Positions 3,681 to 49,366 of a stretch of DNA of 64,000 nt are shown one piece after another. Origin of the DNA: an uncultured Myxococcales bacterium. GTDB lineage: Bacteria; Myxococcota; B64-G9. The stretch covers positions 114,219-178,218 of the forward strand of contig CAZWFN010000001.1 of NCBI GenBank assembly GCA_964633205.1. The letters are read 5' to 3'. The translations under genes and the position numbers were made by a program. Within the stretch, counting starts at the first letter, position 1. Every line of letters begins with the position of its first letter. The notes below the pieces were generated by a model that saw only the letters and a program-made list of their open reading frames with translations, searched no databases and was not told the DNA's origin.

Positions 3681-3848
3681 GACTTCCCCTTCGATCAGAA
3701 GATATCACACCTTCCATTTCGCGGCAGCTGATCGGTGGAATCCTTTGACCGGCGCGGCGGTCCGTGGTGTGCTCGGGGCCATCGTTGGATGGTGTTTTTG
3801 TCAGCGCTCGATACCGGCCGTCGGGGCCGGGGTCCGGGGAAGACGGGC

Positions 3849-6800
3849 ATGGGCGTGGGGTCCGAGGAACAGCCTGGACAACCGCGGCCGTTGCGGGTGA
3901 CCGGGACGGCCGCCGCGCGTTACCGGTTGCGCGATCGGCGAACCGCCCGGCCGACCGAACGGGCCGCGGCGGCCGAGATCGGCCGCGGCGGCATCGGCCG
4001 GGTGCTGCTGGCCTTCGACGAGGACCTGGGCCGCGAGGTGGCGCTGAAGGAGCTGTTGCCCGGGTCCCGGGCCGTGGGCGCGGGAGCGGATGGGGCGGCC
4101 ACCGCGTCCGGAGCGGATCGCACCGCCGACGCCGCGGCCCGCTTCCTGCGCGAGGCGCGGGTGACCGGCCAGCTGGAGCATCCCAACATCGTGCCGGTCT
4201 ACGAGCTGGGCTGCAACGCCGGCGGCAACCTGTACTACACCATGAAGATGGTCCGCGGCCGCACCCTGGCCGAAGCCCTGGCCGACCGCCGCCGCCTCGA
4301 CGATCGGCTGCGCCTGCTGGGCCACTTCGTCGACCTGTGCCAGGCCATCGCCTACGCCCACTCCCGCGGGGTCATCCACCGCGACATCAAGCCCGAGAAC
4401 GTCATGCTGGGCGAGTTCGGTGAGACGGTGGTGCTCGACTGGGGCCTGGCCAAGGCGCGCGGCGCCGAGGACATCCGCGGCTCGAAGATGGAGCGCGAGA
4501 TCCAGCTGCTGCAGGATGCGGCCAGCGGCCACACCGTCGACGGCACCGCCATCGGCACGCCGGCCTACATGAGCCCGGAGCAGGCCGAGGGCCGCCTGGA
4601 CGCCATCGACGAGCGCTCCGACGTCTGGAGCCTGGGCGCGGTGCTCCACCAGATCCTGACCGGCCGGCCGCCCTACACCGGAGCCAACGCCTACGAGGTG
4701 CTCAAGCGCGCCCTGAGCCAGCCGGTGCCGCCGCTGACCGAGACCTGTCCGGAGGCCCCGCTCGAGCTGGCCGCCGTCTGCCGGCGGGCCCTGCAACGCG
4801 ACCCCGACCGCCGCTACCAGTCGGCGCAGGAGCTGGCCACTGAGATCGATGCCTACCTGACCGGAGGTCGGGTGCGGGCCTACACCTACTCGCTCGGTGA
4901 CATGCTGCGCCGCGCCTATGCCCGCCACCGGATGGCCTTCGTCACCGGCGCCATCGCGCTGGTGCTGCTGCTGGCGCTCGGCGTCTGGTCCTACCTGCGC
5001 CTGGTGGCCGACCGCGATCGGGCCAACCAGCTGCGCGCCGCGGCCGACGCGGCCCGCACGGCCGCCCGGCTGCGGCTGGCCGACGCCCACCTGGAGGGCG
5101 CCCGTGCCGCCCGCCTGCGCCGCGATCTGCTCGAGTCGCGGGCCAAGCTGCGCTCGGCGCTGGAGGTCGGCGACTCGGCCGCCGCCCGCTTGTTGTGGGG
5201 CCAGCTGCAGACCGATCCGCTGATCTGGCGCCGCCGGCTGGGGGCCATCGTCTACGACGTGGCCTTCGCCCCCAGCGGCCGCGAGGTGGCCGCGGCCGGC
5301 CACGACGGCTCGATCTGCTTGATCGACGCGCACACCGCCCAGCTGCGGGTGCTGCGCGGCCACCGGCCCTGGGTGGCCAGCCTGGACTACGCCCCCGACG
5401 GCCGGCGCCTGGCCTCGGCCGGTTCCGACCAGCAGGTGCGCATCTGGCGGGTGGCCGACGGCCGGTTGCTGCACGAGCTGGCCGGCCACCGGGCCGCCAT
5501 CCACGACGTGGCCTTCCACCCCGGCGGCCGCCTGCTGGCCAGCTGCGCCCAGGACCGCAGCCTGCGGCTGTGGGATGCCCGCAACGGCGAGCTGCTGCAG
5601 ACCGTGACCGAACCGGCGGTGATCCACTGGGTGCTGGCCTTCACCCCGGACGGCGAGCGGCTGTGGGCCGGCGGCCGCGACGGCAAGCTGCGCGGCTACC
5701 GGGTGACCAAAGACCGCTTGACCGACCCGATCGCGCTAGCGCAACCGACCGGCGGGGCGGCGGCGCTGGCCATCGACCCCGCCGGCCGGCGCCTGGCCAG
5801 CGGCGGCAACAGCAACATCGTCTACCTCTGGGATCTGACCACCCTCGGCCCCGGCGCAGCACCGCTGCGCGCGCTGGCCGGACACCGAGACGGCATCGCC
5901 GAGCTGGCCTTTCACCCGCGACAACCGCGCCTGGTCTCGGCCAGCTACGACCACAGCGCCCGCATCTGGAACCTGGAATCCCCGGATGCGGCACCGGCGG
6001 TACTGCGCCAGCACGAAGAATGGATGGCCGGGGTGGCATTCGCTCCGGACGGCACGGCCCTGGCCACCGGCGCCGAGGATCGCCTGGTGGCCCTGTGGCG
6101 TTTGCCTCTGGACCAAGCGCACCGATCCGTCCGGCGCGGCCATGGAGACGTGGTCACCGAGCTGGCGGTCGCCCCCGACAGCCGGCTGCTGGCCAGCGGC
6201 AGCGCCGACCAGAGCGTGCGGCTGTGGGATCTGGCCGGCGGCCGCCAGCTGGCGGTGCTCGAGGGCCACGGCGACGACGTCCAGGGTCTCGGCTTCGCCG
6301 CCGACGGCACGCTGCGCTCGGCCGACTGGACCGGCCAAGTCTACCGCTGGCAGCGCACCGACGACCAGACCTGGCGCGGCGAGCCGCGGCGGCTGGCCGG
6401 TGACGCCGACCCCAACACCAGCGTGGAGTTCGGCCCCCAAGGCCGCTGGGCGGCGGCGGCCGACTACGATCGCAGCATCCGCCTGTGGGACCTGCGCAGC
6501 GGACGCGAGCGCAAGCTCGTCGGCCACGGTGATCTGATCCGGGAGCTGGACTTCGGCCCGGCCGGGCGGTTGTTGGCCAGCGCATCCTGGGACGGCAGCG
6601 TGCGCCTGTGGCGAACCGACAGCGGACGCTGCCAGGCGGTACTCGAGGGCCACCAGGGCCAGGTCAACAACGCCGTCATCGCCGACGACGGCCGCCGGCT
6701 CTACTCCACGGGTTGGGATCGGACGATCCGCCGCTGGGACCTGAAAGGCGCCAGCGGCCGGGTGGTCCACCGCGGCGACGCGCGCTACGAGACGCTGGCC

Positions 6801-7949
6801 GTCAGCCCCGACGGCGCCTGGCTCGCCGGCGGCACCGAGGCCGGTGGCATCGAGCTGCTGGCCGTACCGAGCGGTGAGCTGCGCCGGCTGACGGGCCACC
6901 GCGACATGGTGTCCAACCTGGCCTTCGACCCGGCCAGCCGTCACCTGTTGTCGGCCGGCGACGACGGCACGGTACGCTGCTGGGCTTTGCCCGCAGGAAA
7001 ACCCTGTTGGCGGGCACCGCTGCTGCTCCCCGGTGCCGGCCCCCCCCGGATGCTCAGCCACCGCGGCTGGGAGATCCCGGGCGGCGGATCCTGCCCGCCA
7101 CCGCGACCGCGCCGCAACTGGCTGGCGGCCGCCGAGCAATCGCTGCGGGTCTCGCTGACCACCGACAGCGCCTGCCTGCGGCTCGGCGGCGACGCCTTCG
7201 CGCTGTGGGACCGCAGGACCGATGAACGCCGCTATCGCCGGCAGCGCGCCGGCATCGAGCAGGTGCTGGCCCTGCCCGGCGGCTGCGCGGTGCGGTTTGG
7301 CGGCCGGGTGGAGCTGCACGCCGCCGCGGCTGCCCCGCGACCGCTGGCCACCGCGGTGACGGCCATGGCCCGGGTGGATGAACGGTTGCTGCTGGCCGAT
7401 GATCAGGGGGTGGGCATCTTCGAGCCCAGCGGCCTGGATCGCGCCCGGCTGCCGGTGGGTGCCGGTGCCACCGCCCTGACCCTGCTGGCCGCTGCGGCCG
7501 GCGAGCAGCTGGCCATCGGTTATGGCGACGGCACGGTCGAGGTGGCCGCTCTGACCGCCGGCGGCCGGGGCCGCAACCTGTCGCTCGACCAGGTGGCCTC
7601 GTGCCCGGTGGTCGCGCTGCGCCCCGGCCCGCGGGGCACGCTGGTGATCGCCTATGCCAATGGACTGATCGGTCTGTGGGACGTGCGCTCCGGCGCCCGG
7701 CTGGACGCCATCCGGCTGCACGGGCCGCTGGCCCACACGGCCTTGCACGCCGGAAAGCTGTACGTCGTGACCGAGCTCGGCGACCACCTGGCCTGGGACC
7801 TGTCCATCCTGGATTGCGCATACTGCAGTCTGCTGGAGCGCGTCTGGCGGCGGGTGCCGGTGGTCTGGGAGGGCGGTCGCCCAGTGGCCCGCCCGCGACC
7901 GGCCGATCACGCCTGTGGCCGCGCTGGCGCCAGCCCGGCCCGGCGCTGA
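3849..7949 (+). CDS. Ser/Thr protein kinase fused to a long WD40 beta-propeller region
   Basis: Kinase motifs VALKEL, HRDIKPENVML, DWGLAKA and GTPAYMSPEQ. About 20 WD40 units follow (GH...WD patterns, e.g. SASYDHSARIWNL, SADQSVRLWDL). Start taken at the third in-frame ATG (3849); 3735 and 3789 are alternatives. Confidence 0.85.
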   Translation: MGVGSEEQPGQPRPLRVTGTAAARYRLRDRRTARPTERAAAAEIGRGGIGRVLLAFDEDLGREVALKELLPGSRAVGAGADGAATASGADRTADAAARFLREARVTGQLEHPNIVPVYELGCNAGGNLYYTMKMVRGRTLAEALADRRRLDDRLRLLGHFVDLCQAIAYAHSRGVIHRDIKPENVMLGEFGETVVLDWGLAKARGAEDIRGSKMEREIQLLQDAASGHTVDGTAIGTPAYMSPEQAEGRLDAIDERSDVWSLGAVLHQILTGRPPYTGANAYEVLKRALSQPVPPLTETCPEAPLELAAVCRRALQRDPDRRYQSAQELATEIDAYLTGGRVRAYTYSLGDMLRRAYARHRMAFVTGAIALVLLLALGVWSYLRLVADRDRANQLRAAADAARTAARLRLADAHLEGARAARLRRDLLESRAKLRSALEVGDSAAARLLWGQLQTDPLIWRRRLGAIVYDVAFAPSGREVAAAGHDGSICLIDAHTAQLRVLRGHRPWVASLDYAPDGRRLASAGSDQQVRIWRVADGRLLHELAGHRAAIHDVAFHPGGRLLASCAQDRSLRLWDARNGELLQTVTEPAVIHWVLAFTPDGERLWAGGRDGKLRGYRVTKDRLTDPIALAQPTGGAAALAIDPAGRRLASGGNSNIVYLWDLTTLGPGAAPLRALAGHRDGIAELAFHPRQPRLVSASYDHSARIWNLESPDAAPAVLRQHEEWMAGVAFAPDGTALATGAEDRLVALWRLPLDQAHRSVRRGHGDVVTELAVAPDSRLLASGSADQSVRLWDLAGGRQLAVLEGHGDDVQGLGFAADGTLRSADWTGQVYRWQRTDDQTWRGEPRRLAGDADPNTSVEFGPQGRWAAAADYDRSIRLWDLRSGRERKLVGHGDLIRELDFGPAGRLLASASWDGSVRLWRTDSGRCQAVLEGHQGQVNNAVIADDGRRLYSTGWDRTIRRWDLKGASGRVVHRGDARYETLAVSPDGAWLAGGTEAGGIELLAVPSGELRRLTGHRDMVSNLAFDPASRHLLSAGDDGTVRCWALPAGKPCWRAPLLLPGAGPPRMLSHRGWEIPGGGSCPPPRPRRNWLAAAEQSLRVSLTTDSACLRLGGDAFALWDRRTDERRYRRQRAGIEQVLALPGGCAVRFGGRVELHAAAAAPRPLATAVTAMARVDERLLLADDQGVGIFEPSGLDRARLPVGAGATALTLLAAAAGEQLAIGYGDGTVEVAALTAGGRGRNLSLDQVASCPVVALRPGPRGTLVIAYANGLIGLWDVRSGARLDAIRLHGPLAHTALHAGKLYVVTELGDHLAWDLSILDCAYCSLLERVWRRVPVVWEGGRPVARPRPADHACGRAGASPARR

Positions 7950-38243: not shown

Positions 38244-40552
38244 TTAGAAACGCCGGTCGATGATGGTGGTCTCACCCGGTTGGATGCGGACCTCGATCAG
38301 CTCATCGATGCCGTCCGCCTTGCGCACCAAGCGCAGGTGATGGGTGCCGGCCGGCAGGCGTTTGCCGACCAAGGGCGTGCGGCCCAGCCGCTTGCCACCG
38401 AGCAAGACCGTCATCGGCCGCCCCGTGGTCAGCTGCAATTTTCCCCGGCCCCGGCGCCGGCGCTTGTCGGCGCTGGCGGCTGCCTCGATCTTCTGCGGAT
38501 AGAACTCGAGCTCCAGGCGCTCCTCGGCCGACAGCCACACCCGCTGGCGATCCGGCTGATGACCGGAGCAGCGGACCGTGACCTCGAACTCCCGGTTGGC
38601 CGGCAGGATCACGCTGGCCAGCGGCGTTCGGCCGGCCAGTTCCATGCCCGCCAGCTCGACCGCACAGCCGGTAGGCTCGCTGCGAACGGCCAGCTGGGCC
38701 AGCGGCGGCGGAACCGCCAGCGGCCGTGGCTGCAGCCCGGCGGTGGCGGCCGTTGCGGCCTCGTCGAGTTCGGGCTCCGGCTCCGGCTCGGCAGCCGGCT
38801 CGACCGCAGCCGGCTGCACCGGCTCGTCGTCACCCGACGGCCAGACCAGGGCGATGATCAGCAGCAGCAGCACAGCCCCGACGGCCGTGGCCGGCCAATG
38901 CAGGTGGGGCGGTAACCAAGGAGTCGGCGGAGCCGCTGCAGCGCCGGTGGGCTGGGCCGATTCGGACCGCTCGGACACGTTCGCAGCGCCGTCCTCGGCC
39001 ACGGCCAGCTTGACCCGAAATCCCTCCGCTGGACCACCGTCCCCCGCAGCATCAGCCGCTCCCGCCAGGGCTCCGGACGGCGGATCGCCGTCCGTCCCGG
39101 CCGCGGCCGGCCCCGCCTGATCTGCGCCCGCTGCCGCGACCGCCCCCGCGGTCGGCGCCCGGTCATCGACCTTGCGGGCCGCAGCCACTTTCTCGGCACC
39201 CAGATCCTCGAGCGTCGGCGGCATGGTCTCGAACGCCCCGGCCGCTGTTGCCGGCTCGTCCGGCATCCCGGATGCCGCTGGTCGCTCGGGTTGCGCGCGC
39301 TGTTCGGGCTGGTCGGGTTGCCGGGCCTCCTCGGCCGGGGTCTCTGCCGGCGGCACTGAAATCTCCGGCGGCGACACATCCGGCAAGGGATCGTCGCCGG
39401 CTGCGTCGACCGGGCCCGCATTCGCGGCTGTCTCGGCTTCGGCCCGCTCGGCCGCCGCTGGCAGAGGCGGTGGTTGCGGCGGCGGCGCGGCTTCCGGCTC
39501 GGCTTCCGGTTCGGCTTCCGGTTCGGCCGCCGGTTCGGCCGCCGTTCCGGCCGACCGGTCGGGCAGCAGCAATTCCGCGACGTCGCCTTCCAACTCGCCG
39601 GCGGCCGCCCGCTCCAATGCCTCGGCCTTGGCCTGCAAACGGTCCGCCAGGTGCTGCTCGAGCAACGTCGCCACGGTGGCCGGTCCGACCTCCCCATCCA
39701 ACCCGCGGCCCACCTCGGCCAGGGCCGACTCCAAGGCGGCGGCCGAGTCCGGTCGTGCGGCCGGATCGCGGGCCAGGCAACGCCGCAGCAGCGGCTCCAG
39801 GGCGTCAGGGTTTTCGGCGCCGGCGGGCAGCGGTGGCACGTCGCCGGCCAGGATGGCCTTGCGCGTGGCCAGATCGTCACCGCGGTCGAACAGGGATCGA
39901 CCGGCCGCCATTTGCCACAGCACGCTGCCGAGCGAAAACAGATCCGAGGCGGGCCCGGTCTGCTCGCCCAGGCATTGCTCCGGCGACAAATGGGCGGTCA
40001 AGCGGCTCGGGTGGGGACGCTCGGCCGGCCGCTGCAGGTCGAAGTTGATCACCTTGACCACGCCATCGGGCTGCAGGACCAGATTGCGCGGGTTGACGTT
40101 GCGATGGACCAGATGCAGCGGCTCGCCGGTCTTGTCCTTCAGCTGGTGGACGAAAGCCAGCCCTGCCGCAGCTTGCCGGCCCACCGCGATGATCACCGGA
40201 GCCGGCAGCGCGGTGCCGATCGGCCAGCGGCCGAGCAGCAGCCCCAGGCCGTCACCGTCCAGAAACTCGGATACGGTGAACACACCCGCCCTGGACTTGC
40301 CGGCCTCGATGACCCGCGTCAGGTTGGCCTGGGTCAGCCGGACCCCGATGCGGGCTTCGTCGAGAAAACGCCCCACAGCCGCTTCGTCGCGGGCCAGATG
40401 GGCCAACAGCTCGCGGATGACGACGAAACGACCACGGCCGGACTGGCCGGCCACCAGCCCCAGCGAGACCGCGGACAACCCGCTGCGGGTCAGCGGCAAC
40501 AGGATCTGGTACTCGCCCTTGCGCCCCTTGAGCCTGCGCCTCGCTCTTGCCA
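38244..40552 (-). CDS. transmembrane Ser/Thr-kinase-like protein, predicted pseudokinase, with C-terminal PEGA domains
   Basis: Kinase fold with catalytic residues substituted: VAIK to VVIRE, HRD to HRNVNPRN, DFG to NFD. A Pro/Ala/Glu-rich linker, one TM helix and two PEGA-like domains follow. The track ORF upstream of ATG 40552 is antisense noise. Confidence 0.7.
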
Positions 40553-40609
40553 TGGTTTTCCGATCGTAGCCGCTGACTGCCGGCGAAAGCAATGGGCTTG
40601 TCCGCCTCG

Positions 40610-41419
40610 TCAGCCGGAGCGGACTCCGTTCTTGACTCCGAGGATGGCGAACCGCTGCGCCACTCCGGCGGAAAAGGCGAACAGGCACGCCAGGCTGCGA
40701 AACGTCTCGCTGACCGCGGTGACCAACCACGGCGAGGCATCGACCAGGGGCAAAACGGCCAAAGTGCCGTCGAAGAAGAGCCAGGCGATCGAGCTGATGG
40801 TCAGCAGGGCCCAGGGCCAGCCCAGCAGACCCCCGCGCAGCGCCAGGGCGGTCAGCAACAATGGGGCGATCAGCACCAGGATGACCAGATCGCCCAGGCC
40901 GGAGGCGATCCACACCAGTGCCTCGCCCTCGCCGGCGAGCAGCCGTTGGAAGTTGACCACCACCGCCGACCCGGCCGAAGCCAACGACAGCACTACGGCG
41001 GCGGCCAGCACGGCGTGCTGGGCCCAGCGCGGACCGGGCAGCTCGAGCCCGGCCACCTTCCAGGCCCGGGCCAGCATCCAGGTGCCCACCACGGCCGAGG
41101 CATTGGCCAGCAGGGTGGCCCCACCGCGGGCCGCCCCGCGCCAGGCGACGCCCTCGGGCACCGCCAAGCCGAACACCGCGTCGCGCGCCAAGAGCAACAG
41201 CATGGCGGCGCCGTAGAACAGCCAGGCACGGCGCAGATACTCGCCGCGGGAAAAGGCGAATGCCGCCAGGACGGCGCCCACCACGGGCATGGCCTTGGCC
41301 AGCTCCATCTCGGCCCGCATGAAGGTACCGAAAGCGGGCTCCCCGGCCAACGCCAACATGCCCCCCACCAACGCGGCCGCCCAGAGCAGCGGCACCACCA
41401 CCAACACCCGGAACCTCAA
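40610..41419 (-). CDS. integral membrane protein (about 7 TM helices)
   Basis: Hydrophobic periodicity throughout. The start overlaps the stop of the small upstream ORF (ATGA). Confidence 0.55.
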   Translation of the reverse strand: MRFRVLVVVPLLWAAALVGGMLALAGEPAFGTFMRAEMELAKAMPVVGAVLAAFAFSRGEYLRRAWLFYGAAMLLLLARDAVFGLAVPEGVAWRGAARGGATLLANASAVVGTWMLARAWKVAGLELPGPRWAQHAVLAAAVVLSLASAGSAVVVNFQRLLAGEGEALVWIASGLGDLVILVLIAPLLLTALALRGGLLGWPWALLTISSIAWLFFDGTLAVLPLVDASPWLVTAVSETFRSLACLFAFSAGVAQRFAILGVKNGVRSG

Positions 41420-41646
41420 CCCAACACCTCCTCGCGGAGGGAGCGCAGCAAGGCATCTGTCGAATCGGCGCCCACCAGGGTACGCAGCATCGGTCGCAAG
41501 GCCTCGAGCAACGCGGGCGCGTCAGCGGTGGTCACCTGCTCGGGCGCCTTGCCCAGCGCCTTGCGGGCGAAGGTCTGGACCGCCACGCGGGCGGTGTTCG
41601 GCCCCAGGTAGGTACTCAACCGTTCGACGATCTGATCGGCGACACG
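41416..41646 (-). CDS. small hypothetical protein
   Basis: About 77 aa, starting MRVADQIVERL. Stop coupled to the membrane protein gene. Confidence 0.35.
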   Translation of the reverse strand, partial: RVADQIVERLSTYLGPNTARVAVQTFARKALGKAPEQVTTADAPALLEALRPMLRTLVGADSTDALLRSLREEVLG

Positions 41647-42059
41647 CATTCTCTTCTCGACCACTTCACCCGCAGCCGCGGCCCGGTTCTCTCCACCCCG
41701 TTCAGCGCCGGTACAGCACCCGATAAGCCGCCTCGGCGCCAAACCAGGCGACCAGGCGTTCCAGCCGACCCATCGACGCACCGGTTCCCATCAGAAAAGG
41801 GTACGGCAAGGCCTTCCTCCCGCTTGGCTTCGGCTCCAGCATAGAGCTTCGAACCCCGCGGGTCAACGCGCCCCGACTGATTTCCCAACGCGACCGCGAC
41901 CATTGCCGCTTGCGCTCGCAGCGCCAGCGGGCGACTATACCATTACTTCGCAGAAACTGCTTCGATAGCGTATACAGCTCTGGTGGAATGGTACTGCTCT
42001 TGGCTTTGTTTGCGGCGGTAGCAGCGCTGTGACTGTTCGGTCCAGGTGAGGAGAATGCG

Positions 42060-42779
42060 TTGATGGACGTCCAGCGATTCGATTTCGAGCCCGGCACGGT
42101 TCTCAACCGCAAGTACGAAGTGCTCGGCTTCCTGGGCGACGGTTGGGAAGGCGAGGTCTACAAGCTGCGCGAAAGGGCCACCGGCATCCGCCGGGCGGGC
42201 AAGTTCTTCTTCCCGCGCCGCAATCCCCGCAACCGCACCCTGCGCGCCTACGCCAAGAAGCTCCACGCGCTGCGCCATTGCCACGCCCTGATTCAGTACT
42301 ACACCCAGGAGAGCATGCAGTTCCACGGGCGGCGCATCGACTACCTGGTCTCCGAGTACGTCGAGGGCGAGAGCCTGTCGAGCTTCGTCGGCCGCCAACC
42401 GGGCCGCCGGCTGCACCCCTACCAGGCCTTGCACCTGCTGCACGCCCTGAGCAGCGGTGTGGCCGAGATGCACAACCTGCGCCACTCGCACGGCGATCTG
42501 CACACCGACAATATCATCGTGCGCCGCTACGGGCTACGCTTCGAGCTCAAGCTGTTCGATTTCTTCCAGTGGGAGATGTCGACCCAGGATCTGATCCAGG
42601 AGGACGTCTACGACCTGATCCGGATCTTCTACGACGTGCTCGGCGGCAAGCGCACCTACGCCCGGCAGTCACCGACGGTCAAAAACATCTGTCGGGGCCT
42701 GAAGCGCAGCTTGATCCGCCAGCAGTTCCGCACCGCCGGTCAGTTGCGCCAGCACATCGAGACCCTGGAGTGGGAGTGA
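42060..42779 (+). CDS. small atypical protein kinase (Bud32/RIO/Kdo-kinase-like fold)
   Basis: Gly-rich loop GFLGDGWEGEVYKL, AxK (RAGKFFF), catalytic loop HSHGDLHTDNIIV, and DFF in place of DFG. Only 239 aa. GC is lower than the flanks. Confidence 0.65.
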   Translation: MMDVQRFDFEPGTVLNRKYEVLGFLGDGWEGEVYKLRERATGIRRAGKFFFPRRNPRNRTLRAYAKKLHALRHCHALIQYYTQESMQFHGRRIDYLVSEYVEGESLSSFVGRQPGRRLHPYQALHLLHALSSGVAEMHNLRHSHGDLHTDNIIVRRYGLRFELKLFDFFQWEMSTQDLIQEDVYDLIRIFYDVLGGKRTYARQSPTVKNICRGLKRSLIRQQFRTAGQLRQHIETLEWE

Positions 42780-42784
42780 AGCCC

Positions 42785-43627
42785 ATGACCGACGAGATGC
42801 TGGCGACCGGACGCGACCACTTCGCCCCGCAGGCGGCGCGTCTGGCCGGGGGAACCGCGCTGGCCTATACGGCCCGCGATCCGACCGCCGATAGGCCCAA
42901 CGAGGATGCCCTGGCCCTGCTGCCGCTCGACGACGAACGGGCCGTCATCGCCCTGGCCGACGGCGCCGGTGGAGAGCCGGGCGGCGCCGAGGCGGCGGCC
43001 CTGACGCTGCGCACCTTGCAGCAGAGCCTGCGACAAGCGCGGGCCCAGCCGCCGGCCGAGGGGCTGCGCGCGGCGATCCTGGATGCCATCGAGGCCGCCA
43101 ACCGCCAGTTGCTCAACACCCTGCCGGGTGCGTTGACCACGCTGGAGGTGGTCGAGATCGGCGCCTGGCACGTCCGCTCGTATCACATCGGCGATTCGGG
43201 GACGCTGTTGATGGGCGGGCGCGGCCGAGTCAAGTACCGCACCATCTCCCACTCCCCGGTGGGATACGCGATCGAGGCGGGGCTGGTCGAGGCTGGCGAA
43301 GCGCTGTTCCACGAGGACCTGCACCTGGTCAGCAACCTGCTCGGCACCCGCGAGATGCACATCGACATCGGCCCGCGCCTGCGGCTGTCGCCGCGTGATA
43401 CCCTGCTGGTGGCCAGCGATGGATTGGGCGACAACCTGTTGCCGCGCGAGCTGACCGAGCTGTCCCGCAAGAGTCCGTTGGAACGGGTGCGCGACCGGCT
43501 GGCCGCGCTGGGCCGCCGGCGCATGCTGGAGCCGACCGCCGGCACGCCGTCCAAACCGGACGACCTGAGCTTTGTCCTGTTCCGGCCGGACCCGGCCCGG
43601 GGGCCGGGGGCGGAAGGACGGGGGTGA
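42785..43627 (+). CDS. PP2C-family Ser/Thr protein phosphatase
   Basis: PP2C metal-binding motifs NEDA, ADGAGG, HSPVGY and ASDGLGD. Starts 5 nt after the kinase stop. Confidence 0.8.
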   Translation: MTDEMLATGRDHFAPQAARLAGGTALAYTARDPTADRPNEDALALLPLDDERAVIALADGAGGEPGGAEAAALTLRTLQQSLRQARAQPPAEGLRAAILDAIEAANRQLLNTLPGALTTLEVVEIGAWHVRSYHIGDSGTLLMGGRGRVKYRTISHSPVGYAIEAGLVEAGEALFHEDLHLVSNLLGTREMHIDIGPRLRLSPRDTLLVASDGLGDNLLPRELTELSRKSPLERVRDRLAALGRRRMLEPTAGTPSKPDDLSFVLFRPDPARGPGAEGRG

Positions 43628-43631
43628 GTCC

Positions 43632-44048
43632 ATGGGTGAATTCGAGATGCTGGAGCACGCCGCCGACGCCCGGGTCCGCTTGCGCGGCGACAGCCTCGAG
43701 GACGTCTTCGCCACGGCGGCCCGGGCCCTGGTCTGGTTGATGGTCGGAGACAGCCAGCTCGAGCGCAGCCGGTCGCGCAGCCTGGAGCTGGCGGCCGACA
43801 GCCCCACCCAGCTGCTGGTCGACTGGCTCGACGAGCTGATCTTCTTGTTCGAGACCGAAGCCTGGCTGGTGGCCGAGGCCGAGTTGGACATCCAGCCCGG
43901 CTGGCGCTTGCGGGCGGTGATCCGGGGCCAGCCCCACGACGCCCGGCGCCAGCCCATCGAGACCGTGGTCAAGGCGACCACCCACCACCGCCTGAGACTG
44001 GAACGCCGGGATTCGGGCTGGGAGGCCGAAGTCGTGTTCGACCTGTGA
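43632..44048 (+). CDS. archease (RtcB activator)
   Basis: MLEHAADARVRL N-terminal archease motif; length about 138 aa. Starts 4 nt after the PP2C stop. Confidence 0.8.
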   Translation: MGEFEMLEHAADARVRLRGDSLEDVFATAARALVWLMVGDSQLERSRSRSLELAADSPTQLLVDWLDELIFLFETEAWLVAEAELDIQPGWRLRAVIRGQPHDARRQPIETVVKATTHHRLRLERRDSGWEAEVVFDL

Positions 44049-44064
44049 GCCGAGGGGGACCACC

Positions 44065-45525
44065 ATGCAGAACCGAAAGCGGAAGCTGATCCTGGAGCGT
44101 CTGGACGACTGGCGCTGGCGCATCCCGCGGCGTGGCCCCATGCGCTCCGATGGTCTGATCTTCGCCGACGAGACCCTGGCGCGCACCGCCGGCCGGGACG
44201 GCACGCTGCAGCAGGTGGCCGATGTGGCCAGCCTGCCGGGCATCGTCGGTCCGGCCATGGCCATGCCCGACTTCCACCAGGGCTACGGCTTCCCCATCGG
44301 CGGGGTGGCCGCCTTCGACGCCGAGGGCGAGGGCATCGTCTCACCAGGCGGCGTCGGCTACGACATCAACTGCGGGGTGCGCTTGCTGCGCACCCGACTG
44401 GACCGCGACGAGATGGAAGCCCACCTCGACACCTTGATGGTGGCGCTGCTCGGGCACATCCCGGCCGGCGTCGGTTCGCGGCGACCGGACCTGAAGCTCG
44501 CCGAGCGCGATCTCGACCGGGTGCTGGCGGAAGGGGTCGATTGGGCGGTGGGTCGCGGCCTGGCCGGTCGCGCCGATACCGACCGGGTGGAATCGGGCGG
44601 CTGCATCGCCGGAGCCGATCCCGACCGGGTCAGCGGCCGGGCGAAGCAGCGCGGCCACAACCAGCTCGGCACCCTGGGCTCGGGCAACCATTTCGTCGAG
44701 ATCGATGCGGTGACCACCGTATACGACGCCCAGGCGGCCGATGCGCTGGGGCTGGCGCCCGAAGGGGTGGCCGCGCTGATCCACACCGGCTCGCGTGGCC
44801 TGGGCCACCAGGTCTGCTCCGATGCCATCAGGCAAATGGCGCGGGCGGCCGGCCGCTACGGCATCCGCTTGCCCGACCGACAGCTGTGCTGCGCCCCGCT
44901 GGATTCGGATGAGGGCCGCGGCTACCTGGCCGCCATGGCCGCCGCGGCCAACTACGCCTTCGCCAACCGGGCGGTCATCAGCCACTGGCTGGGCCTGGCC
45001 CTGGAGCAGGTGTTCGGTCGATCGGCCGGCGAGATCGGTCTCGGTCTGGTCTACGACGTGACCCACAACATGGCCAAGCTCGAGACCCATCAGGTCGAGG
45101 GCCGCCGACGGCGGCTGTGCGTCCACCGCAAAGGGGCCACGCGGGCTTTCGCCCCGGGACACCCGGAGCTGCCGGCCGCTGTCCGGCCGCTGGGACAACC
45201 GGTGCTCATCCCGGGGGACATGGGCCGCTGCTCCTATGTCCTGCTGGGCACCGAAGGCGCGATGCGCGAGACCTTCGGCTCGTGCTGCCACGGCGCCGGC
45301 CGGGAGCTCAGCCGCAAGCAGGCCCGGCTGCAAGCCCGGGGCCGATCCATCGCCGGCGAGTTGCTCCAGCGCGGCATCCACGTCCAGGGCGCCAGCCGGC
45401 GGACGCTGGACGAGGAGCTCAGCGAGGCATACAAGGACGTCGACCGGGTGGTCGACGTGGTCTGTGGGGCCGGCCTGGCGCGCCGGGTGGCTCGGCTCGA
45501 GCCGCTGGGCGTGGTCAAGGGCTGA
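44065..45525 (+). CDS. rtcB: RNA-splicing ligase RtcB
   Basis: RtcB active-site motifs DFHQGYGFPIGG, GYDINCG, GSGNHF, HTGSRGLGHQ and CCHGAGR. A GAGGGGGAC RBS precedes the ATG. Confidence 0.9.
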   Translation: MQNRKRKLILERLDDWRWRIPRRGPMRSDGLIFADETLARTAGRDGTLQQVADVASLPGIVGPAMAMPDFHQGYGFPIGGVAAFDAEGEGIVSPGGVGYDINCGVRLLRTRLDRDEMEAHLDTLMVALLGHIPAGVGSRRPDLKLAERDLDRVLAEGVDWAVGRGLAGRADTDRVESGGCIAGADPDRVSGRAKQRGHNQLGTLGSGNHFVEIDAVTTVYDAQAADALGLAPEGVAALIHTGSRGLGHQVCSDAIRQMARAAGRYGIRLPDRQLCCAPLDSDEGRGYLAAMAAAANYAFANRAVISHWLGLALEQVFGRSAGEIGLGLVYDVTHNMAKLETHQVEGRRRRLCVHRKGATRAFAPGHPELPAAVRPLGQPVLIPGDMGRCSYVLLGTEGAMRETFGSCCHGAGRELSRKQARLQARGRSIAGELLQRGIHVQGASRRTLDEELSEAYKDVDRVVDVVCGAGLARRVARLEPLGVVKG

Positions 45526-45639
45526 GCGGGGCCGGCACCACCGCTGTTCCAATTGCGCCCACTGCGATTGCCCTGCGGCGCGTTTCCCGGTAAAAGAGCA
45601 TACCGGACCAGCCAGCGGCTTCGGTTCCAGGGGAAGACG

Positions 45640-46530
45640 ATGACCATGCGTACGTGCTTCATTTTGTGCTTGGTGTTCGCGGCGCCGCAGGTGGCAGCCG
45701 CTGAGAGGCCGGCCGCTGAGACGCCGTTGCGGATCGGCGTCAGCATCGCCCCCCAGGCCTGGCTGGTCGAGCGTCTGGCCGGCCAGCCGGTCGAGGTGGA
45801 GATCATGGTGCGACCGGGACAGTCGCCGGCGACCATGGATCCCACCCCGCGCCAGATGGCGGCATTGGCTCGGGTGGTGACCTATATCCGCATCGGGGTG
45901 CCGTTCGAGCGCGGTTTCATCAAAAGGCTGCGGCGCAATCGACCGCAGCTGCCCATCGTCGATCAGCGCCAGGGTGTGGCATTGCTCACCCGGAACGGAA
46001 GGGCCTTGAAGCCGGGAGCCGATCCGAGCGCGGCCGACCCGCACATCTGGCTCGACCCTGGGCGGCTGAGTCGCCAGGCGAATACGGTGGCCCGCGCCTT
46101 GCGCGACCTGGCCCCACGGCGCGCAGCTGCGATCGAGACCCGGCGCCGGCGGCTGGTGGCCGAGTTCGATCGGCTCGATCGCCGCATCGGCCGCCTCCTC
46201 GGCCCCTTGCGCGGTCGCTCCCTGTTCGTTTTCCACCCGGCTTACGGTTACTTCGCCGCGGCCTACGGGCTGGTGCAGGTCGCCGTCCAGACCGGCGGCA
46301 AGGAGCCCAGTGCGCGGCAGCTCGCCCGCCTGATCGAACGCGCCCGGCGGGCCAAGGCGCGGGTCATCTTCGTCCAGCCGCAGTACTCGCGCAAGAGCGC
46401 CGAGCTGGTGGCCGAGGCCATCGGCGGGGCGGTGGTGGAACTCGACCCGCTGGCGCCGGACGTGCTGGACACCTTGCGGCAGGTGGCCGAGCGGGTGGCC
46501 CAGGCCTTCGGGCGGCGGAGCCCGCATTGA
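45640..46530 (+). CDS. znuA: zinc/metal ABC transporter substrate-binding protein (TroA/ZnuA family)
   Basis: Signal peptide and the DPHIWLDP metal-site motif. Operon position ahead of znuC and znuB. Confidence 0.8.
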   Translation: MTMRTCFILCLVFAAPQVAAAERPAAETPLRIGVSIAPQAWLVERLAGQPVEVEIMVRPGQSPATMDPTPRQMAALARVVTYIRIGVPFERGFIKRLRRNRPQLPIVDQRQGVALLTRNGRALKPGADPSAADPHIWLDPGRLSRQANTVARALRDLAPRRAAAIETRRRRLVAEFDRLDRRIGRLLGPLRGRSLFVFHPAYGYFAAAYGLVQVAVQTGGKEPSARQLARLIERARRAKARVIFVQPQYSRKSAELVAEAIGGAVVELDPLAPDVLDTLRQVAERVAQAFGRRSPH

Positions 46531-47294
46531 ACGCCGTGCCGCCGGCGATCGAGTTGGCCGCCGTCTCGTTCGGCTTCGACACCTCACCGGTGTTGCAGGA
46601 TGTCGACCTGCGCATCGAGCGCGGGCAGTTCGCCAGCATCGTGGGGCCCAACGGCGGCGGCAAGACCACTTTGCTCAAGCTGGTGCTGGGTCTGCTGCGG
46701 CCCGCTCGGGGGCGGGTACGAGTCTTCGGCCAGGCCCCTGAACGGGCTCGCCCGCGCATCGGTTACATGCCCCAGCACACGGATCACGACCGGTTGTTTC
46801 CGGCCACTGCGGGCGACGTGGTGCGCATGGGACGCCTGCGCCGCGGCTGGCCGCTGGGGCCGTTTGGCCGCCGCGATCGCCGCGCCGCCAGCGAAGCGCT
46901 GGAGCGGGTGGGCCTGGCCGCAGTCCACGATCGGCCCTTCGCCGATCTGTCGGGCGGTCAACGCCAGCGGGTGCTGATCGCCAGGGCGCTGGCCGGCGAG
47001 CCGGAGATGTTGTTGCTCGACGAGCCGACCTCGAACATCGACACCGCCGCGGTGGACGCCTTCTACGATCTGCTCGAGACGCTCAGCCGCAGCCTGACAG
47101 TGGTTACCGTCACCCACGATATCGGCTTCGTCTCCAGTCGGGTCCGCAGCGTGGTGTGTGTCAACCGCCGGGTGGTCACCCACCCCACCAGCGCGCTGAC
47201 CGGCGAGTGCCTGCGCGACGTCTACGGCACCGATCTGCACCTGGTCCACCACGATCGGCGTTGCCCGGACAAACCCGCCGGAGGTGACCCGTGA
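46527..47294 (+). CDS. znuC: zinc ABC transporter ATP-binding protein
   Basis: Walker A GPNGGGKTT, signature LSGGQRQRV, Walker B LLLDEPTSNID. ATGA overlap with znuA. Confidence 0.85.
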   Translation: MNAVPPAIELAAVSFGFDTSPVLQDVDLRIERGQFASIVGPNGGGKTTLLKLVLGLLRPARGRVRVFGQAPERARPRIGYMPQHTDHDRLFPATAGDVVRMGRLRRGWPLGPFGRRDRRAASEALERVGLAAVHDRPFADLSGGQRQRVLIARALAGEPEMLLLDEPTSNIDTAAVDAFYDLLETLSRSLTVVTVTHDIGFVSSRVRSVVCVNRRVVTHPTSALTGECLRDVYGTDLHLVHHDRRCPDKPAGGDP

Positions 47295-48160
47295 GCACCT
47301 TCGTGCAGGACCTGCTACAGCATGGCTTCTTGCAGAAGGCTTTGGCAGCCGCCCTGCTGTCCAGCGTCGCTTGCGGCATGATCGGCTCATTCGTGGTGGT
47401 CCGGCGCATCTCCTACATCGCCGGCGGCATCGCTCACAGCGTGTTGGGCGGCATGGGCGCGGCACTCTACCTGCGCTCCGTCCACGAACTGGAGTGGCTC
47501 ACCCCCCTGGCCGGTGCGGTGGTGGCGGCCTTGCTGGCGGCCATGGTCATCGGCCTGGTCAGCCTGCACACCCGCGAGCGGGCCGACACCGTCATCGGCG
47601 CTCTGTGGGCCATCGGCATGGCCACCGGCGTGTTGTTCCTGGCGCAGACACCGGGCACCGAGGACGACCTGATGAGCTACCTGTTCGGCAACATCCTGTT
47701 CGTCTCCGGAGCCGACCTGTGGCTGCTGGCCGTCCTGGATGCAGTGGTCTTGACCGGTGGGGTGCTGTTCTACCACCAACTGGTGGCCATCTGCTTCGAC
47801 GAGGAGTTCGCGCGGGTGCGCGGGGTGCGGGTGGATCTGTTCTACTTGCTGCTGCTTTGCTTGACCGCCCTGACCGTGGTGCTGTTGTCGACGGTGGTGG
47901 GCATCGTGCTGGTGATCGCGCTGCTGACCCTGCCCGCCGCCACGGCGGCGCGGTTCACCCGCTCACTGGGCCGCATGATGCTGGTGGCCTCGATCCTGTG
48001 CGCCCTGTTCTCGGTGGGCGGGCTCGCCCTGAGTTACGGCCCCGAGTGGCCGGCCGGGGCCACCATCATCATCACCGCCGGGGCCAGCTACCTCCTGGTC
48101 GCGGCGGCCGCTGCCATGGTTCGCCGGCGGCGGCGGTCGCAGCAGCCCGACCCGCCATAA
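47291..48160 (+). CDS. znuB: zinc ABC transporter permease (ABC-3 family)
   Basis: Polytopic membrane protein with the ABC-3 pattern. GTGA overlap with znuC. Confidence 0.85.
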   Translation: MSTFVQDLLQHGFLQKALAAALLSSVACGMIGSFVVVRRISYIAGGIAHSVLGGMGAALYLRSVHELEWLTPLAGAVVAALLAAMVIGLVSLHTRERADTVIGALWAIGMATGVLFLAQTPGTEDDLMSYLFGNILFVSGADLWLLAVLDAVVLTGGVLFYHQLVAICFDEEFARVRGVRVDLFYLLLLCLTALTVVLLSTVVGIVLVIALLTLPAATAARFTRSLGRMMLVASILCALFSVGGLALSYGPEWPAGATIIITAGASYLLVAAAAAMVRRRRRSQQPDPP

Positions 48161-49366
48161 CCCGCCCAGGGCGGCCGCGTCGCAGGCCACGGCCAGCCCG
48201 ATGAAAAACCAGTTGTCCTGGATGGCGGGACCCAGCTTCAGCCCCACATCGACCGCGATCAGGGCCAGCCCCAACACCAGGGTGGCGCCGACCCAGCGCG
48301 CGCAGCGGCCCAGCCGGCCGAACAAAAGCAGCCGCACTCCGGGAACCACCAACCATAACAATACCGGCGGCGTGACCAACAGGTTCTCGTTGGCATGGGT
48401 GTCCACGTGCTCGGTCAGTGCCCACATCAACGCCAACAGCAGCCCGCCGGCACCGGCCGCCAGCCCCCAGACCAACAGGCCCAGCCCCAGCAACCGGCGG
48501 CCCGCCGCCCGCGGGCCGATCAACAGCGGCAGCCCCAGCCCCAGCAGCAACAGGCCACCGGCCAGCGCCAGCGGCAGCCATTCGGCCAGCGGCACCCGGC
48601 CGCCGACCGGCGGACCGCGCCGCGCGGCGACCACCACCCGCTCGGCCACCAGCGGTCGGGCGGCGGACGGCGCCCGCAGCAGCTCCAGATCGCGGCTCAG
48701 CGGAGCCGGTAAAAAGTACTCCTGCCAGCGGCGCAGCGGCCGATCGACCACGCCGGCCAGCAGGTAATCGATGGCACCGGCGGTCGACCACAGTCCGGCC
48801 AGAGCCCGGCGCGTCCACCAGCGGTAGCTGCGGCCCGTGGCCAGCGGTCGGGCGTGGCGCCGCAAGACGCCATCCAGCACACCATCTAGCAGGTCGCGCA
48901 CCCGGGTGCTGCAGTTGTCCAGGTAGTGGCGGTAGGCGTAGCGACGGTTCTGCGGCTTGGCGTTTTCCCGCAGCAGGGCGACCACCGCAGCGGCCTGCTC
49001 GCGATCCAGGGCCAGCCAGCGGACGACCACCCGCCGATCGCCGCGGCGGTATGCTCGCACCACCGCCGGCAGCGGAGCGACCGACAACCAGTAGATGAGA
49101 TTGCCCCGCAGGTACTGCCAGCGCAGGTCGGGATCATCGAAGTCGAAGGTGCCGTAGTTGAACAGCAGCGAACGTTGGCGTTGCCGCTCCGCGACCACCA
49201 GCCCGATGTGACCGAAGCGGGTGAACAGCGCCTCGCCCGGGCCCACGGTCAGCACCCCGATGCGCCAGCGTCCTTCCGTCTCGGCATCCGGACCGGGCGC
49301 GGGAACCGCAGCCGCGGCCGACCCGAGTGCCAGCAGGATCGAGCAGCCCATCCCCAATACCACCAT
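47963..49366 (-). CDS. DUF4105-like secreted/membrane protein
   Basis: Signal peptide, N-terminal periplasmic domain with FTRFGHIGLVV...LLFNYGTFDF, then C-terminal TM helices. The called 3' end overlaps znuB by about 200 bp. Confidence 0.5.
   Translation of the reverse strand: MVVLGMGCSILLALGSAAAAVPAPGPDAETEGRWRIGVLTVGPGEALFTRFGHIGLVVAERQRQRSLLFNYGTFDFDDPDLRWQYLRGNLIYWLSVAPLPAVVRAYRRGDRRVVVRWLALDREQAAAVVALLRENAKPQNRRYAYRHYLDNCSTRVRDLLDGVLDGVLRRHARPLATGRSYRWWTRRALAGLWSTAGAIDYLLAGVVDRPLRRWQEYFLPAPLSRDLELLRAPSAARPLVAERVVVAARRGPPVGGRVPLAEWLPLALAGGLLLLGLGLPLLIGPRAAGRRLLGLGLLVWGLAAGAGGLLLALMWALTEHVDTHANENLLVTPPVLLWLVVPGVRLLLFGRLGRCARWVGATLVLGLALIAVDVGLKLGPAIQDNWFFIGLAVACDAAALGGLWRVGLLRPPPPANHGSGRRDQEVAGPGGDDDGGPGRPLGAVTQGEPAHREQGAQDRGHQHHAAQ

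Follow-up and report, generated by a model that had tools for sequence, protein, structure and literature searches.

Organization of the four-gene cluster

In the window, by which we mean the whole 64,000-nucleotide stretch of DNA that was analysed, four intact open reading frames follow one another on the + strand. They encode a minimal kinase (42063..42779; ATG at 42063, stop codon at 42777-42779; 238 aa), a PP2C phosphatase (42785..43627; ATG at 42785, stop codon at 43625-43627; 280 aa), an archease (43632..44048; ATG at 43632, stop codon at 44046-44048; 138 aa) and the RNA ligase RtcB (44065..45525; ATG at 44065, stop codon at 45523-45525; 486 aa). The gaps between them are 5, 4 and 16 nt in order, in agreement with the tight packing (4-16 nt) described in an initial annotation of this DNA. 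An in-frame TTG at 42060 precedes the kinase ATG, and 9 nt ahead of that ATG a Shine-Dalgarno-like motif, GAGGAG, occupies positions 42048-42053. A promoter and terminator scan found no terminator-like site in any intergenic gap of the cluster. The four genes are probably co-transcribed, and their spacing suggests a tightly packed unit that is probably translationally coupled.

The intergenic region upstream of the kinase (41782..42062, + strand), delimited by inspection of the sequence, is the presumed promoter and 5' UTR of the cluster. GC content falls to ~0.65 in this region, and the promoter scan gave no usable match to a sigma-70-like promoter on its + strand. An Rfam scan of positions 40000-48500 at a permissive threshold returned no non-coding RNA, Y RNA and tRNA-like elements included, and a tRNA scan over the whole window found nothing. 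Neighbouring genes encode two proteins of 121 and 269 aa that match no Pfam or NCBIfam family, a PEGA-domain kinase, a DUF6599 protein and ZnuABC. Pfam and NCBIfam searches of these neighbours found no RtcR, RtcA or sigma-54 activator, which upholds the contrast with RtcR-regulated rtcB that the initial annotation had drawn.

An archease-RtcB pair and a PP2C phosphatase

RtcB enzymes seal RNA 3'-phosphate or 2',3'-cyclic phosphate ends to 5'-OH ends via RtcB-His-GMP, and archease speeds RtcB guanylylation and permits multiple turnover. Both proteins are represented here by full-length domains in adjoining genes, as expected of the functional pair named in the initial annotation: the archease matches PF01951 over profile positions 1-136 of 136 (2.4e-37) and ends 16 nt ahead of the rtcB ATG, and RtcB matches PF01139 over profile positions 1-426 of 426 (4.4e-162). 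RtcB also aligns end to end with the Pyrococcus horikoshii enzyme (1uc2; 9e-164, residues 10-486), in which the reference catalytic residues are D95/C98, N202/H203, H234, H329 and H404. In this alignment it keeps GYDINCG, GSGNHF, HTGSRGLGHQV, HN and CHGAGR, the motifs that include the metal-binding residues and the His that becomes guanylylated. We assign the protein to the archaeal/eukaryal, archease-dependent branch of RNA 3'-phosphate/5'-OH ligases.

The phosphatase matches PF13672 PP2C_2 (1.8e-11) and the NCBIfam Stp1/IreP PP2C model (1.5e-20, short of that model's 230-bit equivalog cutoff). Its translation carries the acidic metal-binding motifs of PP2C enzymes (NED, DGAGG, GDSG, SDG and DD).

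A minimal Hanks-type kinase without an activation segment

The first gene encodes a minimal Hanks-type kinase. The Pfam Pkinase model matches it at 3e-12 (46.8 bits against a cutoff of 31.7 bits), with the profile match ending at position 142 of 263. In both sequence and fold, the protein is most like true protein Ser/Thr kinases. The kinase fold proposed in the initial annotation is borne out as a bilobal ePK fold, and the motifs quoted there (Gly loop, AxK, HGDLHTDN and DFF) are not only present but invariant in a 27-sequence family alignment, where they read GxGWEG, A45-x-K47, H143-G-D145-L-H-x-x-N150 and D166-F-F; G25/G27/G30 of the Gly-rich loop, K47, D145, N150 and D166 are identical in 27/27 sequences. 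The enzyme is non-RD, with HGDLH in its catalytic loop HGDLHTDN replacing HRDLK, and DFF replacing DFG. Only ~6 residues separate DFF (166-168) from a helix that begins at 175, and activation segment, APE and P+1 loop are all missing. Helix 55-69 shows no conserved acidic residue in the 27-sequence alignment that would correspond to the alpha-C Glu, and the protein has no transmembrane or PASTA sensor part.

A resemblance to RIO/Bud32 kinases had also been suggested, and it held in part. Like these minimal kinases/ATPases, the kinase here is small, has an HGDL-type catalytic loop and lacks an activation loop; it may therefore act as they do, perhaps targeting an RNP with an ATPase or atypical kinase activity. 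However, neither RIO nor Bud32 was its closest structural neighbour, and no model of either family matched significantly: in the profile search the RIO1 model gave no match, and NCBIfam Bud32 models matched the catalytic-loop region at E ~1e-5, the best scoring 24.8 bits against a cutoff of 125 bits. The Kdo kinase model likewise remained under its cutoff (18.9 against 21.3 bits), as did the match to APH.

The kinase-PP2C pair is widespread on its own

Homologues of the kinase span more than 8 phyla at 55-64% identity, occurring in Gammaproteobacteria, Planctomycetota, Acidobacteriota, Latescibacterota, Nitrospirae, WOR-3 and other groups, and form ~100 clusters at 50% identity (E<=1e-30). By sequence, this is a tight, strongly conserved orphan family, and we found no described function for it. 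Of 80 genome loci, 54 carry a PP2C homologue next to the kinase, its sole conserved neighbour; when ORFs were clustered all against all and 138 upstream neighbours were surveyed with Pfam, no third partner exceeded 5-8 loci. The most frequent other neighbours, a CPBP protease (5 loci), GNAT (5) and TatC (4), are all lineage-specific. In the wider family the pair usually closes its transcription unit and is followed by a convergent gene, and the plasmid and phage collections searched contained no kinase homologues. At the 79 loci outside the window's clade (L002-L080), neither archease nor RtcB turns up within 6 kb of the kinase, even at E<=1. The pair is most simply read as a reversible phospho-switch and, because it lives without RtcB in almost all lineages, its ancestral target would not have been RtcB.

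Conservation of the four-gene order in one clade

The order kinase, PP2C, archease, rtcB is kept in the window and at three other loci. Identities to the window proteins, given as kinase, PP2C, archease and RtcB, are 79%, 59%, 44% and 67% for L081, 71%, 52%, 51% and 67% for L082/83, and 71%, 56%, 45% and 68% for L094, where rtcB is cut by the contig end. Spacing within the four-gene loci runs from -4 to +68 nt, and in L082 and L094 the PP2C and archease genes overlap by 4 nt. The flanks are unrelated, with TatD in one locus, a 946-aa protein in another and znuABC in the window. Recurrence in three further diverged contigs with unrelated flanks indicates that chance alone does not account for the arrangement in this lineage. 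The initial annotation had made its proposal depend on synteny at homologous loci; the synteny holds within this lineage but not in the 79 loci beyond it, nor among the nearest outside archease-RtcB pairs. The RtcBs of the latter (64-66% identity; L099-L101) are encoded in HU-archease-RtcB-Dps loci that contain neither kinase nor PP2C. The archease of the window shares 44-51% identity with its counterparts at the other four-gene loci and 32-37% with those of stand-alone archease-RtcB loci.

The RtcB-linked kinases form one clade in a neighbour-joining tree, and all four-gene loci stem from a single fusion event; they thus amount to one evolutionary observation retained over time rather than to a repeated, independent association. 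A metagenome scan for further clade members yielded 8 loci only; for two close relatives (80-82% identity) the contigs end before any neighbours are reached. The nearest named relative of the four-gene clade is an uncultured Myxococcales MAG. A sibling MAG (L001, 94% nucleotide identity) has intact kinase, PP2C and archease genes, and its rtcB is reduced to a 17-nt 5' stub and a 106-bp internal fragment. Its upstream region is in part 83-88% conserved and contains ~530 extra bases relative to the window. The loss of rtcB in this genome means either that the ligase is dispensable for the other genes or that the assembly is at fault.

Interpretation of the locus

The lack of an RtcB link outside the clade and the retention of gene order inside it point to a lineage-specific operon fusion of two autonomous two-gene modules, which we combine with a model of co-expression and to which we assign a probability of roughly 0.45. 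One module is the orphan minimal Hanks-type kinase with its PP2C, and the other is the canonical archease-RtcB RNA ligase unit, which came to stand directly behind the first in an ancestor of one clade; the four genes have since stayed together in tight packing, probably as a single transcription unit with translational coupling. The fusion has probably been selected for. In the likeliest working model, repair of RNA breaks would be co-expressed with a stress-responsive phospho-switch, and the two might answer one physiological problem (translation machinery that is damaged or has stalled, for example) or have a target in common.

Much of this could also arise without selection: in one ancestor archease-rtcB may have landed behind a kinase-PP2C operon to which it had no functional link, the arrangement then persisting by descent only. 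Both modules are autonomous elsewhere, the fusion is limited to one small clade, and rtcB has degraded in L001 with the other genes unchanged. The usual position of kinase-PP2C at the end of a transcription unit, followed by a convergent gene, would moreover make the site permissive for insertions. Purely neutral juxtaposition nevertheless seems to us somewhat unlikely, since the order has outlasted divergence to 44-59% archease/PP2C identity and the complete replacement of both flanks, and since the spacing of -4 to +68 nt, with a stop/start overlap in two lineages, is typical of selected operons.

A rival explanation, along the lines of the initial annotation, is direct phospho-regulation. 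The mini-kinase would phosphorylate RtcB or archease, or would interfere with their complex, the PP2C would undo this, and ligase activity would be switched post-translationally. Phosphorylation control of this kind is suggested by the lineage-specific synteny, and it draws on the conserved four-gene order with its PP2C-archease start/stop overlap in two lineages, on the catalytic residues retained by both enzymes and on a eukaryotic precedent. In humans, RTCB is phosphorylated at Tyr306/316/475 by c-Abl and dephosphorylated by PTP1B, which modulates its activity (PMC8899846; PMC10630183). We nevertheless consider direct control unlikely. At 79 loci without nearby RtcB or archease, orthologues of the kinase still show 55-64% identity to it, which suggests a substrate common to all of them; the kinase lacks the activation segment and P+1 loop, the peptide-binding parts of Hanks kinases; and kinase and PP2C persist in L001 without rtcB. 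Among the small number of sequences compared, clade-specific Ser/Thr/Tyr phospho-acceptors number zero in archease and one in RtcB (Ser at position 177). The broader proposal, that kinase and PP2C are a dedicated phospho-switch on archease-RtcB or on the RNA or ribosome substrate that RtcB repairs, is similarly doubtful.

Some protein-kinase-fold enzymes, such as APH and Kdo kinase, have non-protein substrates. The missing activation/P+1 segment, the missing conserved alpha-C glutamate and the sub-threshold Kdo and APH matches would suit the layout of ligase, kinase and phosphatase seen in RNA-repair systems, in which case the first two gene products would heal RNA ends or modify nucleotides and so prepare termini for RtcB. 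This is very improbable, given that the kinase-PP2C pair overwhelmingly occurs without any RNA ligase, that its best matches are protein Ser/Thr kinases and an Stp1-type protein phosphatase, and that we know of no PP2C that acts on RNA ends. Less credible still is a role of the cluster in kinase-based phage defence or conflict (PD-T4-6, MADS, PglW-like), with RtcB mending self- or phage-inflicted RNA damage. PADLOC and NCBIfam do report matches to mad6, PD-T4-6 and PglW kinase domains, but these are generic (19-54 bits); those from PADLOC, at 54 bits or less, are limited to the N-lobe and catalytic loop, and NCBIfam MAD6 reaches 46.8 bits against a 460-bit cutoff. The neighbours are housekeeping genes with no mobile-element genes nearby, plasmid and phage collections contributed no homologues, and the high cross-phylum conservation of the kinase is unlike that of fast-evolving defence genes. 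We rejected the class, BREX PglW included, as one of generic kinase similarity outside any defence-island context.

Comparison with known systems

Stk1-Stp1 and PknB-PstP likewise place a Ser/Thr-kinase-fold gene next to an Stp1-like PP2C, and kinases of this sort match the one here best in sequence and in fold. In contrast to those systems, the kinase gene here comes before the phosphatase gene, and the kinase is only 238 aa long, has no transmembrane/PASTA part, activation segment, APE or P+1 loop, and is non-RD, with HGDLH for HRDLK and no conserved alpha-C Glu visible.

To our knowledge, the only described control of bacterial RtcB is transcriptional, via RtcR. The rtcBA operon of E. coli and Salmonella is governed by this sigma-54 activator (Hughes et al. 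2020, PMC7790460) and has in common with the cluster here an RtcB ligase and a presumed role in repairing stress-induced RNA breaks, but RtcA, RtcR and Ro/Y RNA are absent from the vicinity of the cluster, and its RtcB belongs to the archease-dependent branch. The closer parallel is the "tRNA splicing operon" of Pyrococcus horikoshii and many archaea and bacteria (Desai et al. 2014, PMC3973293; 2015, PMC4604427), in which archease lies immediately upstream of an archaeal-type RtcB, as it does here and, as a pair alone, in L099-L101; the difference is that kinase and PP2C precede archease-RtcB here in one tight unit. The initial annotation considered the arrangement undescribed. The literature searched makes no mention of RtcB, archease, PP2C and kinase together, but the survey of Burroughs & Aravind (2016, PMC5062991) may list it. 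The human c-Abl/PTP1B system (Papaioannou et al. 2022, PMC8899846) sets a precedent for kinase/phosphatase control of an RtcB ligase; it is eukaryotic, its genes are unlinked and it pairs a Tyr kinase with a PTP-type phosphatase. For the cluster here, RtcB as the substrate would be an extrapolation.

The linkage goes back to one evolutionary event, within a small group of uncultured bacteria, which limits its value. In that lineage it is a real clue tying phosphorylation to RNA repair, and a conserved operon joining RtcB-archease to a kinase and a phosphatase offers a directly testable hypothesis of phospho-controlled RNA repair. If true, this would be the first post-translational control circuit of RNA repair in bacteria, and it would provide the first functional handle on a widespread orphan kinase family without an activation loop, which may act in a RIO/Bud32-like manner on an RNP. 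The link to RtcB in the window's clade is the only functional hint that we found for this family.

Organization of the four-gene cluster

Re-reading the sequence gave four forward-strand ORFs at 42060–45525, with junctions exactly as in the initial annotation, and Pfam and NCBIfam upheld the identities of all four proteins: a kinase (42063–42779, starting at ATG, with an in-frame TTG at 42060), a PP2C phosphatase (42785–43627), archease (43632–44048), and RtcB (44065–45525), spaced by 5, 4, and 16 nt. The window has a high GC content (~70%), and a GAGGAG motif lies 9 nt 5′ of the kinase ATG. No terminator-like hairpin was found in the intergenic gaps of the cluster, and a scan for Rfam families and tRNAs returned none. 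Genes for a ZnuA/ZnuC/ZnuB-type metal ABC transporter (znuA, znuC, znuB; 45640–48160, forward strand) begin 114 nt after rtcB, with no predicted terminator in between. This linkage was seen only in the window and in its sibling Myxococcales MAG, L001; RtcB is a metal-dependent enzyme. At L041, a Pirellulales kinase locus, znuABC lies ~2.7 kb downstream of the kinase-PP2C pair. On the 5′ side of the cluster, the opposite strand carries two uncharacterized ORFs and, ~2 kb upstream, a large Ser/Thr kinase (38244–40331, reverse strand). This kinase ends in a PEGA domain and contains a long Pro/Ala/Glu-rich linker of low complexity; its true start is uncertain, and the mechanical ORF runs to 41456. 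We looked for RtcA, RtcR, and mobile-element genes near the cluster and found none.

RtcB aligned end to end with its P. horikoshii counterpart (9e-164), keeping all motifs with metal ligands and the guanylylated histidine, and is thus predicted to be an intact enzyme on the archease-dependent branch. Archease gave a full-length Pfam family match. The PP2C resembles Stp1-type phosphatases (NCBIfam, 1.5e-20), and its translation contains the NED, DGAGG, SDG, and DD motifs.

An atypical, compact kinase family

The Pfam match of the kinase ends at the equivalent of DFG (position 142 in a profile of 263). The AF2 model, which is confident (pLDDT 90.2), has the whole bilobal kinase fold. The family alignment (27 sequences) shows no variation in the Gly loop, K47, D145, N150, or D166, so catalysis, whether phosphotransfer or ATPase, is likely. 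The catalytic loop is atypical (HGDLH), and no conserved alpha-C glutamate is visible in the same alignment. Only about six residues separate DFF from the next helix, which bears an invariant D181, so that the kinase lacks an activation segment, P+1 loop, and APE motif by both alignment and model. The initial annotation had likened this protein to RIO/Bud32 kinases. The picture of an HGD-type mini-kinase without an activation loop is fair for its possible mode of action, but it did not test as a RIO/Bud32 family member. Bud32 and Kdo family models (Pfam, NCBIfam) scored far under their cutoffs, and the fold comparison had no RIO, Bud32, or KdkA structure among the matches listed.

A word-index search returned 892 kinase matches, most of them 237–261 aa long and 55–64% identical, from more than eight phyla (Gammaproteobacteria, Planctomycetota, Acidobacteriota, Latescibacterota, Nitrospirae, WOR-3, Syntrophobacteria, and others). 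An exhaustive profile search gave only ~100 clusters (50% identity) at E ≤ 1e-30, against 51,471 generic kinase matches, which marks out a compact family with sharp limits. We found no described function for these ~240-aa proteins, which may merit study in their own right, and no plasmid or phage copies in the collections searched. Four family loci (L036, L076, L077, L080) lie in MAGs labelled Patescibacteria, Woesearchaeota (an archaeon), or "uncultured Enterobacteriaceae," odd labels against the family's usual environmental Gammaproteobacteria, Planctomycetota, and Acidobacteriota; these assignments may reflect mis-binning or horizontal transfer.

We surveyed the neighborhoods of 80 genome loci, 838 kb in all, with flanks of up to 6 kb on either side. 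The kinase adjoins a PP2C homologue in 54 of them, and no further gene cluster is common to more than eight. Among 138 upstream neighbors, a Pfam census found lineage-specific companions only (CPBP protease, 5; GNAT, 5; TatC, 4), and the gene 3′ of the kinase-PP2C pair is usually convergent. Archease and RtcB were absent from the flanks (≤6 kb) of the more distant kinase loci, L002–L080, even at E ≤ 1. One lineage (L095, 1662–7472, and L096) encodes a 64% identical kinase without PP2C, preceded by Hsp33 and an S4-domain (Hsp15-like) gene, with a BrkB-family gene and then RelA/SpoT just downstream on the opposite strand. An S4/Hsp15-like ORF is likewise upstream of the kinase at L003. Such neighbors point only faintly to a setting of stress or ribosome function.

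Recurrence of the four-gene order in a single clade

The same gene order was found in the closest kinase relatives. Identities to the window for kinase, PP2C, archease, and RtcB are 79%, 59%, 44%, and 67% at L081 (TatD upstream); 71%, 52%, 51%, and 67% at L082/L083 (a 946-aa protein upstream); and 71%, 56%, 45%, and 68% at L094, where rtcB is partial and runs off the contig end. Tight spacing is retained, including a 4-nt overlap between PP2C and archease in L082 and L094. In a neighbor-joining tree of 96 family members, the kinases of these loci group in one clade with those of the window and L001. Archease identity to the window is 44–51% inside this clade versus 32–37% in the nearest outside RtcB loci, which fits a single fusion event. 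Those outside RtcBs (64–66% identity) have neither kinase nor PP2C; their HU–archease–RtcB–Dps/ferritin arrangement is conserved in three separate contigs (L099–L101, around 3765–7100).

Relationship between the two modules

The locus varies a known type of operon, archease-RtcB, to which an orphan kinase/PP2C module has been added. The initial annotation regarded the arrangement as apparently undescribed, and we did not find all four genes together in the literature searched, though an earlier mention may exist. Co-mentions of RtcB and PP2C there seem unrelated judging by title and abstract, and the CoCoNuT study (eLife version) does not link the two.

We read the cluster as two autonomous modules joined once. 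Since the join has persisted while the sequences diverged substantially and the flanks were replaced entirely, as is usual for a selected operon, the balance favors co-expression and some functional coupling of the four genes. We give a probability of roughly 45% to a co-expressed stress/RNA-repair operon in which the link to kinase-PP2C would be indirect or through a shared target. Next in our ranking, a neutral, inherited juxtaposition of the two modules is somewhat doubtful. Direct phospho-regulation of RtcB or archease is plausible in principle, given that c-Abl and PTP1B act on human RTCB (PMC8899846), but that precedent has no bearing on this locus. The kinase-PP2C pair is, moreover, kept at 55–64% identity in lineages where RtcB is not adjacent, so its primary substrate is probably something common to all carriers; direct regulation is accordingly rated unlikely, with RtcB and archease as candidate targets only. 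Exotic readings, RNA-end healing and a defense system taken together, are very improbable. The association of kinase/PP2C with RtcB is a genuine, testable lead, confined to a single clade and, as to mechanism, drawn from sequence.

Variation in the sibling genome and in RtcB

L001 shares 94% DNA identity with the window and has intact kinase, PP2C, archease, and znuABC. Of rtcB, only the first 17 nt and a 106-bp internal fragment corresponding to window 44584–44689 are left (L001:7984–8240 versus window 44049–45639), which could reflect either a genuine recent loss of the gene or assembly collapse. The intergenic region 5′ of the kinase is ~530 bp longer in L001 (L001:5215–5742 versus window 41741–41746), and the remainder is 83–88% identical, compared with 94% in coding regions. 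Finally, RtcB residue 177 (44593–44595) is Ser in all three clade RtcBs and Ala, Gly, or Glu in 10 of 11 outside RtcBs. It is the only position with this clade-specific Ser pattern and, with so few sequences compared, only a candidate site for mutagenesis.
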